Assembly: GCA_963807605.1 (NCBI GenBank)
Contig: CAWECG010000003.1
Coordinates: forward strand, 1 to 64,000
Direction of reading: 5' to 3'
Source of the DNA: Candidatus Bathyarchaeota archaeon
GTDB lineage: Archaea > Thermoproteota > Bathyarchaeia > 40CM-2-53-6 > RBG-13-38-9
DNA length: 64,000 bases
The notes under the pieces were generated by a model. The model was not told the DNA's origin. It searched no databases and saw only the letters and a program-made list of their open reading frames with translations. Shown piece after piece: positions 39,612-56,005 of the stretch. Numbering within the stretch: the first letter of the stretch is position 1; every line of letters begins with the position of its first letter. A program made the position numbers and the translations under genes.

Positions 39612-39685
39612 TTACACGTGTAATTTACACGTCGATTTCCAGACTTACACGATCCAGCTATAACGCCGTTATTCCCTATATCCCC
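39612..39685 (+). repeat. Casposon-TIR-like arm
   Basis: About 75-bp repeat with CACGT boxes ending ccctatatcccc directly at a 14-bp core. Confidence 0.75.
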
Positions 39686-39706
39686 TGTCCCTTGGTGAGC
39701 ACACCC

Positions 39707-39822
39707 CACACACACACACACACACACACACACACACACACACACACACACACACACACACACACACACACACACACACACACACACACACACACACACA
39801 CACACACACACACACACACACA
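39707..39822. repeat. (CA)58 microsatellite
   Basis: Perfect CA tract, an expansion of the (CA)n arm of the core at 39686. Confidence 0.95.
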
Positions 39823-39865
39823 TAACCTGCTTAGCGCCCTTGTGGTAAAGAAGGTGTGGCGCTCT

Positions 39866-40633
39866 TTAGGTCAGAACTTTCTCTTGTATGAAGGCGCCGT
39901 GCCAGGTGTGGTACCATACCTGACCGGTGTAGCCGTTGACGCTTAACATTCCGTATATCTTGCCATCCTTGAGGACGTGCAGGGTATAGTATCCGTAGAA
40001 GGTTTCTGGTTCTTCTAGTGAGGCGCCTGGAAGGTTCGAGTCTAGGTAGGTTTGGGCTAGCTGCTTTGCATCTGTCTTTGTAACCGACATATTAGCTGTA
40101 GGCACTCCACTGTATGGTTGGTAGCCCCATCCACGGCCCATCATTCCTCCGCCTTGACTCCAGCCACCACCCATAGGGCCCCAACCGGCCATCTGTCCGT
40201 ACTTGGTGTTCCACATCATGCTTGGCCCTTGCTCTAGATGGATTATTCCCATCATCCCGCCCATTCCGCTTAGGCCGACTGCTTTCTCGATGATTCCTTC
40301 GAAGGCGTCGATCCCTGTGCTCTTCTCGTAGGCAATGAAGTAGTAGTTATACTGGAACTCCATGATCTCTTTGACGGCTAAGTCAGGGTATCCTAAGGAT
40401 GCTACCCAGATCTTCGCCACCTGTGCTGCCTCATTGATATTCCTTGGAATTGCCGGGTAGGGTTGGTAGGATCCTGTAGTTGGAGTTGGAAATGTTGGGA
40501 AGGGAGTCGTTTGCGCTGGAAATGTAGTTATCTGGCCTGTGTATGTTGGTGCCCATTGTACTGTTGAGAATGCGGCTAACCCTACGATGCCTATTATGAT
40601 TAGGACTACTCCAAGCAGGATCCTTCTGTTCAT
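39866..40633 (-). CDS. Exported PepSY-like, Gly/Met-rich conserved protein
   Basis: EIMEFQYNYY, MMWNTKYG, FYGYYTLH, MLSVNGYTGQVWYHTWHGAFI. Confidence 0.7.
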   Translation of the reverse strand: MNRRILLGVVLIIIGIVGLAAFSTVQWAPTYTGQITTFPAQTTPFPTFPTPTTGSYQPYPAIPRNINEAAQVAKIWVASLGYPDLAVKEIMEFQYNYYFIAYEKSTGIDAFEGIIEKAVGLSGMGGMMGIIHLEQGPSMMWNTKYGQMAGWGPMGGGWSQGGGMMGRGWGYQPYSGVPTANMSVTKTDAKQLAQTYLDSNLPGASLEEPETFYGYYTLHVLKDGKIYGMLSVNGYTGQVWYHTWHGAFIQEKVLT

Positions 40634-40646
40634 TCTGTTGCTCCTC

Positions 40647-41039
40647 TTAGGAGAGTTCCTGCTTCATTCGTTCGTAGTCTTCTTTTGTTATCTCGCCCTT
40701 GGCATATCGTTCCTTTAGGATCTCAAGTGGTCTGTTGCTTGGTGCTGGACTCGCGGGTGCTGGTCTGCCTCCGCCTACGAGGTAGTAGATTCCAAACGCT
40801 ATCAGACCGATGAAGATCAGGAATACGATTATTCGGACGATTGCGCCGAGCCAGTTGAAGCCGTAACCATAGCCATATCCTCCATAGCCCATCATGCCAC
40901 CGTACCCACCGTTCGGGCCGTAGCCACCCATCATGCCTGGGCCCATAAAACCTCCTCCCATGAACATCAAGGGCCCTGCGAAGACTATTATCAAGATAAT
41001 GACTAGGAGGATGATCCAACCGCTGCTTCTATCGCTCAT
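40647..41039 (-). CDS. SHOCT domain membrane protein
   Basis: GMMG repeats; PLEILKERYAKGEITKEDYERMKQEL. Confidence 0.9.
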   Translation of the reverse strand: MSDRSSGWIILLVIILIIVFAGPLMFMGGGFMGPGMMGGYGPNGGYGGMMGYGGYGYGYGFNWLGAIVRIIVFLIFIGLIAFGIYYLVGGGRPAPASPAPSNRPLEILKERYAKGEITKEDYERMKQELS

Positions 41040-41295
41040 ATGTTCATCTCAGTTTATTTTGTGTTCAAAGCTCGATAAAACCATGTTGTTCCTCATCGAG
41101 AAGGTTATTCCAAAGAACCCTTTTCTTACACACTATTTAGCAACATCCTGTATTTGTTGGACGCAGGGTATCACAGACTATTTAGGGAGTTTTCAGAATT
41201 TAGCCCACTTCGCCACCAAATCTAACCCAAATAGTGGCCCCGGAAGTCAAGCTGAATCATATTTCTTTCCAAGAAAACAGACTAACATGCATTTG

Positions 41296-41383
41296 GGATA
41301 CTAGCACAATTACACGTGATATTTACACGTCGAATTTCAGACTTCCACGATCCAGCCATAACCCCGTTATTACCTATATCCCC
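41296..41383 (+). repeat. Casposon-TIR-like arm
   Basis: Ends ttacctatatcccc at the core at 41384; begins gggatact. Confidence 0.75.
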
Positions 41384-53708: not shown

Positions 53709-54105
53709 GTATCAGAGTGATCAACGTGAAAGTAAAAGCGCTAAAAAGGCCCAACACACCCATCGCATATCCTTGATGATGAATAAAATCAGAATAACCT
53801 TCATCGTCGGCGCCCAATCAAATCACCCTACCGATAGCGAGTTTGCTTGATTCTCCCCCACCTCCCGTTTCAAAGGATATAAGATTTGTCAATGTTTTAC
53901 AACACTTCTTCATTGCTAAACGCAGTCTCCCATAGCAAGTCTCGTGTGCATAGGGCGGCGTGATTTCAAGGCGCGCGCTATTGATTGTGTGTGTGCCTTG
54001 CTGGTGAGCGACGACGACGAAAAAAGATGTGCCTCGCTTCGCTTGGCAGATAATGAAAAGGAAAGTATGCAAGGAAGTTATGAAGAAAGGGAAAGACTGT
54101 TTTGG

Positions 54106-54606
54106 TTAGTCTCTTCTTCTCTTAACCACTACAACCGCGGATAATGCAGCGACTAGTCCTGCTAAGGTTAGGTAGGGTGTTAGAATCTCAAGCTTGTTAG
54201 TTGGTAGGGTGACTCCGCCCACAGGAAAAGTGACTGCATGGAGAATAATGTAATAGTTTTCTCCATTCAGATTGATGCCAAATGGACCCGGAGGGCCGAC
54301 CTGGCCGTAAACTTCGACTAGGTCTCCAACCTGAACATCAGCATAGCCCTGTTGTGGAAATGGAGGACTTACAACAAAGCCAACCTGAACGGTGCTGCCG
54401 ACCGTGAGGCTTCCTGAGCTATCAGAGATTATCTCAAGAATCTGGACATCCCACCAATGTGAACCGATGAGAATCCCCTGATTGGTGACCAAACCTCTGA
54501 TCTTAGCCTCTGTACCGTTAGCGGTAACTACAGGAATTATCGTACTCATAGCGGAGAGAACTAGCAGCATCATTACCGGTGCAAGAACTGAATAATTCTT
54601 ATTCAA
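54106..54606 (-). CDS. Secreted beta-rich protein with PVGG C-terminal anchor
   Basis: Signal peptide; C-terminal 39 aa almost identical to those of 31705-32868. Confidence 0.8.
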   Translation of the reverse strand: MNKNYSVLAPVMMLLVLSAMSTIIPVVTANGTEAKIRGLVTNQGILIGSHWWDVQILEIISDSSGSLTVGSTVQVGFVVSPPFPQQGYADVQVGDLVEVYGQVGPPGPFGINLNGENYYIILHAVTFPVGGVTLPTNKLEILTPYLTLAGLVAALSAVVVVKRRRD

Positions 54607-54684
54607 ACGTGTGCCTCTCTTAATATCATTCTCCGGTCCGCTATTAGTATTAAAACTTTCTAGGGGTATAGTACAAGCGCGCTA

Positions 54685-54865
54685 CCATAGGCAAGATAGA
54701 AGCCTTCCAAAGCCTACAAATACGAAGCCTGGATGTTCCCTAACCATCAACAATTCGTGAACTACTGGAACTATGAGAGACCACACCAAGGAATAAGCTA
54801 TCTATATCCAGCACACGTCTATTTCAGAGACCTAAAGAAAGGAACACATGAGAGTAGCTAGAACA
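54685..54865 (+). pseudogene. IS481-like transposase 3' remnant
   Basis: GKIEAF...FVNYWNYERPHQGISYLYPA; ends ...ACA. Confidence 0.7.
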
Positions 54866-54893
54866 GATGATGTAGATGTCTTCGAGGTGACCT

Positions 54894-55736
54894 TTGTTAA
54901 GCAGGGATTCGCACTCGACTTCGGCAAAGACTGGTAATCCAGCTGAATCCAATCCCTCTAGGCCGATTACCTGGATGCACCTTGTGTCGTTTGCTCTTGC
55001 GACCGCGTTATCGTATGTCTTGGGCGTAGTCTCTTCCCTGTTCTTCCCCGTCTTGGGAGCCCCAGGTGTCACAGCGCTCTACGTTGCAGCCGCGATATAT
55101 GTTCCATTGGCAATTTGGATGGGTATGTGGGGGGTCCTCGCAGGCTATGTCAGCTGCTTTTTCTTGGGCTTGTGGCCAAGTGGATACTCTCCACTTCTAT
55201 CCTCGGTCTGGTCAGTAGCAGATTTCTTGGAAGCCTTGGTGCCACTGCTGTTCTTCAGGTTGCTCAGAGTAGACCCCGACTTTACGGTCAGGCGTCCCAC
55301 TGCAGCAAAATTATTCAGACCACTGGTAAGCATCGGGGTGGCGCTACTCGTCATCGGGATAATTGTGCAGATCTGCTTTGGCTCAATTTATGGTGAACCC
55401 TTTGTCTCAGTATACACGTACACCTTGTACACCGGCTTAGCGCTCTCAATAATTGGAATCTTAGTAGGCGCCTTCAAAGGCGACAAGAAAACATGGGCTA
55501 CGTATATCTTTTCAGGAATAATATCGGCCTCGGTTGTAAGTGGTATATGGGGTGGCTGGGCTTTGACTCTGATACCTGGCCTATCACCACTTCCAGCGGG
55601 CCTATTCCCCGTAGTCCTCACAGGATGGGTTGTCGGCGACATAATAGTACTGGCAGTAATAGCGACAGCACTACTGACCGCACTGACACCTATGATCAAA
55701 CGTTCACCCATATTTGTCAGACGCTGGTGGACTTAG
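54894..55736 (+). CDS. Polytopic membrane protein (ECF S-component/MASE1-like)
   Basis: About 8 TM segments; YVPLAIWMGMWG, GWVVGD. Confidence 0.65.
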   Translation: MLSRDSHSTSAKTGNPAESNPSRPITWMHLVSFALATALSYVLGVVSSLFFPVLGAPGVTALYVAAAIYVPLAIWMGMWGVLAGYVSCFFLGLWPSGYSPLLSSVWSVADFLEALVPLLFFRLLRVDPDFTVRRPTAAKLFRPLVSIGVALLVIGIIVQICFGSIYGEPFVSVYTYTLYTGLALSIIGILVGAFKGDKKTWATYIFSGIISASVVSGIWGGWALTLIPGLSPLPAGLFPVVLTGWVVGDIIVLAVIATALLTALTPMIKRSPIFVRRWWT

Positions 55737-55932
55737 TTTCAGGTAAACCCCTTTTTTTCTTAAGATAGGAAAATACGAGCATAGTGTGTGTGCTCACCAG
55801 CTAGGGCAAACACACTAAACGAATGTCTCGCTCTCGGCTCGCCCTGAAGATTCAGGGGATTCTTCCCCTGACATGAACAGGAGGGATTCATGAACAGGAT
55901 AGGGATGGATTGTGTGTGGGTCTTTTGGTGAG

Positions 55933-56005
55933 GGGGATATAACATAACGCAGAGTTTTTGGTGTCCACGTGGCTATGCCTGATTGGACGTGGAAGTCCAC
56001 GTGAT
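55933..56005 (-). repeat. Casposon-TIR-like arm in the opposite orientation
   Basis: Core 55919-55932 then ggggatataac... with three CACGTG/GACGTG boxes. Confidence 0.7.

Follow-up and report, generated by a model that had tools for sequence, protein, structure and literature searches.

The adaptation machinery of CRISPR has been proposed to descend from casposons. To our knowledge, these elements occur in few lineages, and studies of casposases are limited to three enzymes. The closest described systems are MetMaz-C1 and the other family 2 casposons of Methanosarcina mazei (PMC10359463, PMC4779613, PMC6977970; structure 6OPM). The MetMaz-C1 TIR is printed as GGGATATAGGTAACTCAAAAAAACGCAACGC with a TSD of 14 nt (PMC10359463), and is 31 nt long. 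The 5' part of the duplicated sequence is conserved (CGCA) and its 3' part is variable, and the target needs a tRNA-like sequence upstream. In M. mazei strains, unpaired ends (solo-TIRs, up to three per strain) lie beside the conserved target motif after loss of the body of the element (Krupovic et al. 2016, PMC4779613). In AciBoo-C1 of Aciduliprofundum boonei, the target consists of a leader motif and the first TSD bases, the TSD can vary in its leader-distal half and the duplication measures 14-15 bp (PMC6614799, PMC5137440). Spacer integration by Cas1-Cas2 at the CRISPR leader-repeat junction also relies on a Cas1-family enzyme and an adjoining leader, with a staggered attack at the two edges of a segment of fixed length, which is thereby duplicated.

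The window, i.e. the whole 64-kb stretch of Bathyarchaeia DNA that was analyzed, contained five TATATCCCC sites compared with 0.22 expected, and none of the shuffles gave five. Four of these were located on the plus strand (39677-39685, 41375-41383, 49778-49786 and 51881-51889) and one on the minus strand (55933-55941). All five terminated an arm of 82-90 nt and were directly adjoined, without a gap, by a 14-bp core, as the preliminary description had stated. The limits of the arms were set by a profile search and were close to the earlier coordinates (39612-39685, 41296-41383, 49710-49786, 51815-51889 and 55933-56005). The arms are listed below with their identity to the TIR of L134, a complete casposon described further on.

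39604-39685, minus strand: arm 1, probable solo casposon TIR, tip at 39685; identity to the L134 TIR at 63 of 86 nt, z 15
41297-41383, minus strand: arm 2, probable solo TIR, tip at 41383, reading GGGGATATAGGTAA on the reverse strand (41370-41383); 67 of 86, z 18.6
49699-49786, minus strand: arm 3, probable solo TIR, tip at 49786, reading GGGGATATAGGTAA on the reverse strand (49773-49786); 69 of 88, z 21.9
51800-51889, minus strand: arm 4, probable solo TIR of the commonest subtype, tip at 51889; 62 of 84, z 11.1
55933-56021, plus strand: arm 5, probable solo TIR, orientation opposite to the other arms, tip at 55933; 66 of 83, z 14.6

The reverse-strand reading of two arms had been reported before and was recovered at both places, and the repeated CACGT boxes claimed for the arms were confirmed as an enrichment (2.26 ACGTG/CACGT boxes per 100 nt in the arms vs 0.107 in the genome). 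Arm 1 had three ACGTG-type boxes and a GCGCGCGC patch at its inner edge, and the subtype of arm 4 was present in ~11 copies across the genome. A common plan was shared by 33 arms from this genome and its relatives: the tip, ~20 nt, ACGTGGA, ~12 nt, GACGTGnA, ~8 nt and CGTGGA. We know of no earlier description of subterminal ACGTGGA boxes in casposons.

The start given earlier for the Methanosarcina TIRs proved correct when compared with the printed MetMaz-C1 TIR and its 14-nt TSD (PMC10359463). This TIR begins with GGGATATAGGTAA, and for arms 2 and 3 the leading identical run covered 13 of 13 nt, and was shorter in arm 1 (10 nt), arm 4 (9 nt) and arm 5 (8 nt). Arms 2 and 3 have their terminal sequence in common with a casposon TIR that was shown to be mobile (first 13 nt of MetMaz-C1; PMC10359463). 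Beyond position 13 the similarity ended, and the TIRs of the present group measure 75-95 nt and contain three ACGTGGA boxes, whereas the MetMaz-C1 TIR is without boxes.

Similarity over the whole arm was found to L134, a complete casposon of 16,259 bp on a metagenome contig (L135 is an identical sequence; the element was found in two metagenomes). Its Cas1 (10001-11215), which belongs to the arm-associated clade, lies between perfect, arm-type TIRs of 75 bp, and CGCACCACGAGACC is present twice on its flanks as identical 14-bp duplications, one of which is adjoined by a leader-like segment of the L2 type described below. A Cas1 and PolB element with arm-type TIRs exists in complete form. Besides Cas1 it encodes a polymerase of family B and has an HNH-like gene, a content that resembles that of family 2. 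The 855-aa polymerase had no Pfam match at E 0.001, and was assigned through a PHROG DNA polymerase (E 8.8e-8) and a structural match to an Atlas PolB cluster (TM 0.90/0.87 over 812 residues). A search of the genome collection for the empty site of L134 (exact left flank, TSD and right flank) gave no match. The five arms could be aligned to the L134 TIR over ~85 nt with 72-80% identity (identical at 62-69 of 83-88 positions; z 11-22 relative to shuffled sequences). In the relative G013 and in L130 and L133 the arm was the element end facing Cas1; in G013 it formed the right end, directly after an ORF-Cas1-ORF module. About 20 more Cas1 loci had identical 14-bp direct repeats on their flanks with an adjoining L2 leader. 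The five arms are very probably solo TIRs of canonical Cas1/PolB/HNH-like casposons, related to Methanosarcina family 2, that were once inserted in this island. Remnants of two casposon genes were present in the window.

32992-33408, plus strand: DNA polymerase remnant (casposon family B polymerase), matching residues 652-789 of the L134 polymerase (58% identical, E 6e-42); left side cut off at a core at 32963-32976
52883-53050, minus strand: remnant of a Cas1 (casposase), 56 aa, sharing 55% of residues with the arm-associated Cas1 of G013 and 46% with the resident Cas1

In total, 24 arms were detected in the genome, none of them paired. No inverted partner was found for any of the 24, and no Cas1 or PolB was enclosed by an arm. 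The nearest opposite-facing arms were rejected as partners because they were 68-70 kb apart, adjoined cores in the wrong orientation or were truncated. Of the earlier claim that the arms are ends of non-autonomous or decayed casposons, the casposon origin and, as the most likely reading, the decay are retained, with the qualification that the arms are unpaired. Short multicopy repeats with a conserved tip could also mark the termini of an ordinary insertion sequence or of a MITE, mobilized by a transposase of the DDE or TnpB type. This was looked for, and no transposase domain was present in the genes adjoining any arm; there was no inverted arm pair within 60 kb, and a single specific 14-bp site lay under every arm, which leaves this explanation with next to no probability. 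As solo casposon TIRs, the arms resemble those of the M. mazei strains and differ from them in their number, with 24 copies in one genome, and in an inner edge that is common to the copies and often is a GCGCGC palindrome. Within one subtype this edge was located at ~85-100 nt, and a genome of the same genus contained the same short arm unit in a different context. A common inner edge is not predicted by independent decay and hints that the arms spread as a short unit.

The 14-mer of the tip was found in 12 of 81 related genomes, with 30 matches vs 2 for a control pattern. The tip together with the first box had 11 exact matches in a collection of genomes from 185,579 species, all of them in Bathyarchaeia. 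No papers on Bathyarchaeia casposons were found in the literature searched. The Bathyarchaeia are a new lineage for a known, rare mobile element, and the mechanism is not new.

The cores consisted of CTCACCA followed by 7 variable bases. Their positions in the island are given below.

39686-39699, minus strand: core 1, CTCACCAAGGGACA on the minus strand, with ~120 bp of (CA)n after it (~39700-39822)
41384-41397, plus strand: core 2, a degenerate copy, ATCACCGAGGGGCA
42306-42319 (plus strand), 43166-43179 (minus strand), 43225-43238 (plus strand) and 43284-43297 (plus strand): other cores of the same island, flanked by (TG)n/(CA)n, (CGA)n or L2
49787-49823, plus strand: core 3 region, with core CTCACCAAGGGATA at 49787-49800, then CGACGACGA and a second, inverted core at 49810-49823
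50496-50509, minus strand: core with L2 leader, one edge of a joint from 50509 to 54012 in a single peat-metagenome contig
51890-51962, plus strand: core 4 region, with core CTCACCAGCTAATG at 51890-51903, then a (CA)n and A-rich stretch, an L2 leader-like segment and another core at 51949-51962
53995-54008, minus strand: core with (CGT)n and (CA)n on its flanks
55919-55932, minus strand: core 5, CTCACCAAAAGACC on the minus strand

L2 is a segment of 25-30 nt upstream of the core that resembles a tRNA 3' end (..GGTTCAAAT..GRTGCT). The landing pad would consist of L2 and the first seven bases of the core; it contains the T-loop-like motif GGTTCAAAT and ends in ..CTCACCA. About 130 copies of the pad were counted in the genome. 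ARAGORN and Rfam predicted no tRNA genes at the tested pads, L2 segment included, and in this respect, as in copy number and host, the pads differ from the M. mazei target. In other families of the order the 5' heptamer of the core reads CGCACCA, so that a conserved 5' part and a variable 3' part are common to these cores and the family 2 duplication. The arrangement of L2 and core corresponds to the mapped casposase targets of A. boonei and M. mazei, which comprise a leader plus the TSD. Compared with AciBoo-C1, leader and tip sequences are different. In contrast to a CRISPR leader-repeat junction, there is no Cas2 and no evident crRNA function here, the repeat is only 14 bp long and the inserts are gene-sized or end remnants.

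The core had been proposed to be the TSD of a casposase. This is supported at the level of complete elements, since the 14-bp repeats flank L134 and identical cores flank the resident Cas1 element described below. For the individual arms of the window no duplication could be demonstrated, as they are unpaired and have one flank each; the only duplication partners were 13/14 matches that involve the commonest core variant and were not significant.

Relative to the asymmetric core, nine arms were oriented forward and ten in reverse. Both orientations are required if the arms are left and right ends of TIR elements. They are not accounted for if the arms are arm-type sites of attL and attR left by tyrosine-integrase elements, with the core as crossover segment. 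The direct ACGTGGA repeats do resemble arm-type sites, a tyrosine integrase gene (C1:287794-289005) ends within a core that has an arm next to it, and a second, broken gene is located on C2 at ~0.5 kb from an L2-core. However, such a gene adjoins just one of the 24 arms, and the arms share homology with the inverted ends of an element that has Cas1, PolB and a duplication. We therefore regard an integrase origin as very unlikely. The neighborhood is explained by target sharing, which is known from M. mazei, where an integrase element uses the same target as casposons (PMC4779613).

Casposases are present in the lineage. Among solved structures, the resident Cas1 (C3:803495-804703, 402 aa; Pfam Cas_Cas1, E 2.7e-49) matched the M. 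mazei casposase 6OPM best (E 5.7e-72, its residues 4-397 aligned with 21-407), while the best CRISPR Cas1 reached only 4.4e-25, and it has a C-terminal extension like the casposase of family 2. No cas2, cas4 or CRISPR array was present beside it. The gene belongs to a 9-kb element (C3:796434-805413) in which no polymerase was found and which has the rare core variant CTCACCAGCTAAAG in identical form on both sides. The two PolB genes detected by Pfam in this genome were rejected as casposon polymerases; they are cellular, and neither is near any core or arm. Across 21 sequences the type of the ends followed the Cas1 clade (split support 100/100), and both resident Cas1 genes grouped with the clade whose ends are simple repeats, (CA)n or (CGA)n for example. 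The arms are most likely inactive relics, since the genome has a single intact casposase and this belongs to the sister clade with simple-repeat ends.

The same casposase could alternatively act in trans on non-autonomous mini-casposons that have an arm as one end and a simple repeat as the other, so that the arms would be still-working ends and the island a growing cassette array. Segments 43239-49786 and 32977-39685 have such a layout, in which the left end is of the (CA) type, the right end is an arm and the cores are 13/14 identical, although this match involves the commonest core variant and is not significant. The arms of one subtype share their unit length in differing contexts in this genome, in the same-genus genome and in peat-metagenome contigs, and in published in vitro work casposases accepted ends of various kinds (PMC6977970; PMC6614799). 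In three peat metagenomes, only 6-9% of the words sampled from positions 47000-56500 of the window were found. Contigs from these sources joined the sequence of arm 3 to a different core and leader, and the one contig that joined 50509 to 54012 did so at core edges (depth 3.5, shorter side 28 nt); both are hints only. The same-genus genome had single cassettes in common with the island, on separate contigs, and its assembly was too fragmented for a comparison of filled and empty sites. Against working mini-casposons, the end type tracks the Cas1 clade, an identical duplication around a hybrid element was never found, and the polymerase and Cas1 remnants indicate decay. We consider this possibility unlikely, and favor the arms as relics of canonical casposons.

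Insertion of these casposons may have started from the tip, whose strand ends in ...CCTATATCCCC-3' and whose 3'-CCCC would be the attacking end. The three subterminal ACGTGGA boxes may bind the casposase, perhaps through its C-terminal HTH domain. The core would be cut with a 14-bp stagger and duplicated on repair, and the element bodies would have been deleted later, often at GC palindromes.

These results indicate that Bathyarchaeia carried canonical casposons with Cas1 and PolB, and that these shared their TIR tip with the elements of Methanosarcina. This points to the tip as an old, conserved feature that casposases of different archaeal phyla recognize. The numerous solo ends next to a 14-bp repeat represent the kind of raw material from which CRISPR repeats have been proposed to originate (PMC4779613). 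It is doubtful, and in our view improbable, that the island is a living cassette array built by a casposase, with pads copied at each insertion and solo ends of the arm type and the simple-repeat type still usable. If this were true, accessory genes (multicopper oxidase, nadABC, isochorismatase and membrane proteins) would be stacked and exchanged at the 14-bp repeats, and the island would represent a natural intermediate between casposons and CRISPR arrays, or a Cas1-based analogue of an integron.

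The window is C3:1-64000 of a Bathyarchaeia genome of 2.65 Mb in 5 contigs. TATATCCCC sites were present at the five places named in the preliminary description, against 0.22 expected in the window, and the base directly after each site, forward or in reverse complement, is the start of a 14-bp core (CTCACCA followed by 7 variable nt). Using a profile of all such repeats, here termed arms, the five copies were delimited as follows.

39604-39685, arm 1
41297-41383, arm 2
49699-49786, arm 3
51800-51889, arm 4
55933-56021, arm 5

The arm plan was derived from an alignment of 33 arms from this genome and its relatives. 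The common tip, facing the core, was GGGGATATAG(A/G)TAA, followed inward by ∼20 variable nt, ACGTGGA, ∼12 nt, GACGTGnA, ∼8 nt and CGTGGA. These boxes are direct repeats, and ACGTG/CACGT is 21 times as frequent in the arms as in the genome. The sequence between the boxes varied among at least five arm subtypes, so that the conserved parts are the tip and the boxes.

Metagenome contigs were scanned with a Cas1 alignment, which yielded 80 loci. Locus L134, which has the same sequence as L135 of another metagenome, contained a complete element of 16,259 bp with perfect TIRs of 75 bp that start with GGGGATATAGATAAG and contain the boxes. Each side bore CGCACCACGAGACC, a direct repeat of 14 bp, and one of the two copies adjoined a leader (..GGTTCAAATCTGAGTGCC) similar to L2, the leader-like segment found upstream of cores. 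The element encodes a Cas1 of 404 aa (45% identity to the Cas1 of the window's genome), an HNH-like protein, a type I restriction-modification system and an 855-aa protein that matched family B polymerase in PHROGs (E 8.8e-8) and a mostly archaeal PolB cluster in the ESM Atlas (TM 0.90/0.87). The five window arms aligned with the L134 TIR over ∼85 nt (62-69 identical of 83-88, z 11-22), and no other single finding supports their probable casposon origin as strongly as this alignment. The TIR of the Methanosarcina mazei casposon MetMaz-C1 is printed as GGGATATAGGTAACTCAAAAAAACGCAACGC, with a target site duplication (TSD) of 14 nt (PMC10359463). Its first 13 nt were identical in arms 2 and 3, and the leading match was 10 nt in arm 1, 9 nt in arm 4 and 8 nt in arm 5; past the tip, similarity to this TIR was absent. 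As the arm tips match the printed TIR over 8-13 nt, the start of Methanosarcina TIRs given in the preliminary description was correct.

A tblastn search with the L134 polymerase located a casposon polymerase remnant at 32992-33408 (139 residues, 58% identity, E 6e-42), broken on the left at the core at 32963-32976 and oriented towards arm 1, as the L134 polymerase is towards its nearest TIR. A Cas1 remnant of 56 aa at 52883-53050 (reverse strand) had 55% identity to the arm-associated Cas1 of a relative's genome, G013, and 46% to the resident Cas1. The earlier proposal that the arms are casposon ends is supported by their homology to the L134 TIR and by these polymerase and Cas1 remnants. Genes beside the arms encode a multicopper oxidase, SHOCT-type and other small membrane proteins, a zinc-ribbon protein and a 5TM-LytS-like protein; none contained transposase domains, and an IS origin of the arms, being without support, has a negligible probability.

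Further short remnants of Cas1 and casposon polymerase are scattered on contig C3 (435152-435452, 499650-499817, 495770-495859, 841521-841610 and 796319-796408) and occur at C2:55819-55923. The window also contains a 153-nt direct repeat with 96% identity (36009-36161 and 53043-53195), the second copy of which begins where the Cas1 remnant ends. A nadA-nadB-nadC cluster and an EamA transporter gene share one inter-core segment, 43284-49800, ending in arm 3. The ∼200-nt stretch 54009-54226, which begins at (CGA)n beside core 53995 and overlaps the anchor-like C-terminal region encoded by ORF 54106-54606, has dozens of copies in related genomes at 73-87% identity.

The profile search detected 24 arms in the genome, none of which had a fitting inverted partner. 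Among clear cases, the arm was placed 9 times forward and 10 times in reverse with respect to the asymmetric core, as expected if the arms are the two opposite ends of TIR elements. Both orientations would not be expected of an attachment arm that lies on one side only, and it is highly improbable that the arms belong to tyrosine-integrase attachment sites: a tyrosine integrase gene does end within a core, with an arm following, but this holds for only 1 of the 24 arms, and integrase elements and casposons share targets in M. mazei (PMC4779613). Copies of one arm subtype have their inner end at a common position, and a same-genus genome carries the same 85-nt arm unit elsewhere; simple decay leaves this shared inner edge unexplained. 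GCGCGC was found at the inner edge of 6/20 arms, against 3.2% of random 140-nt windows. GCGCGC(GC) palindromes lie at window 39589-39598, 53195-53205 and 53286-53296, at C3:187140-187152 and at arm inner edges genome-wide, and also cut short the tip of one arm (C3:187153) and one core (53290-53309).

Cores with recognisable flanks number ∼134 in the genome and are clustered in islands. L2 (..CTAACGGTTCAAATTnnGRTGCT) is often on the CTCACCA side, always in the same orientation. tRNA gene prediction at the landing pads (L2 plus core) examined gave none, so the description of L2 as tRNA-like rests on resemblance. The core in other families of the order is CGCACCA plus 7 variable nt, in agreement with M. 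mazei TSDs, which begin with CGCA (PMC4779613). In A. boonei, the leader and the first bases of the TSD are important for the target, and the distal half of the TSD can vary (PMC6614799), a rule that matches L2, the conserved core start and the variable distal bases observed here. Two ORFs, one for a tyrosine integrase (C1:287794-289005) and one with DUF5677 (C3:796422-797894), continue across the flank and end within a core, their stop codon being the TAA in CTCACCAGCTAA; genes that abut the GCTAA core variant thus obtain a stop codon from it. Units of ∼59 bp, core-(CA)n-A-rich-L2-core (window 43156-43310 and 51890-51962), resemble a repeat-spacer array in layout and are read as the remnant of a simple-repeat end followed by the next landing pad.

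Three Cas1 profile matches were obtained in the genome.

C3:803636-804391, within the intact gene (402-aa protein)
C3:1057686-1058027, fragment
C1:340629-340820, weak fragment

The best solved relative of the intact protein was the M. mazei casposase 6OPM (E 5.7e-72, nearly full length), against 4.4e-25 for the best CRISPR Cas1, and no cas2, cas4 or CRISPR array was present beside the gene. It lies in a 9-kb element, C3:796434-805413, which starts with CGACGACGACGA, ends with TCGTCGTCGTCG and has CTCACCAGCTAAAG on both sides. As this core variant is rare (3/134 cores), its two copies indicate that the core is the duplicated target of the element; together with the 14-bp direct repeats around L134, this bears out the earlier suggestion that the core is the casposase TSD.

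Identical 14-bp repeats adjoining an L2 leader also flank the Cas1 element at ∼20 further loci, where the element ends consist of simple repeats: (CA)n...(TG)n, (CGA)n...(TCG)n, CnAn...TnGn or (CCG)n...(CGG)n. Elements of 8-12 kb with (CA)n, (CGA)n, CnAn or (CCG)n ends, and identical 14-bp repeats and leader outside, were C3:796434-805413, L043, L060, L076, L079, L082, L084, L091, L092, L095, L096, L097, L114 and L120; judging by the resident element only, they are apparently polymerase-less. TIRs of this microsatellite-like kind are not usual in any transposon. A (CA)n run of ∼120 bp directly follows core 1 (window 39700-39822), and the cores at C4:17366, C1:373091 and C1:520638 likewise adjoin long runs of (TG)n/(CA)n, which suggests that simple-repeat ends can expand.

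A tree of 21 Cas1 sequences split into two clades (support 100/100). The four sequences of one clade (G013, L134, L130 and L133) are all arm-associated; in G013, from the same family, the right end is an arm directly after an ORF-Cas1-ORF module. The other clade comprises 17 sequences: L071, which has an arm downstream, and 16 that have simple-repeat ends or are resident copies. This larger, simple-repeat-end clade includes both resident Cas1 genes, and it is rather unlikely that arm-bearing units are still mobile through the resident casposase.

Of 81 related genomes, 12 contained the tip 14-mer (30 matches, against 2 for a control pattern), and the tip plus first box had 11 exact matches in a species-genome collection, all in Bathyarchaeia. 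The literature searched contained nothing specific on Bathyarchaeia casposons. New here are the homology of the arms, over their full length, to the TIR of a complete casposon, their subterminal boxes, the window's remnants of a polymerase and of Cas1, and the separation of the two end types, arm and simple repeat, in the Cas1 tree.
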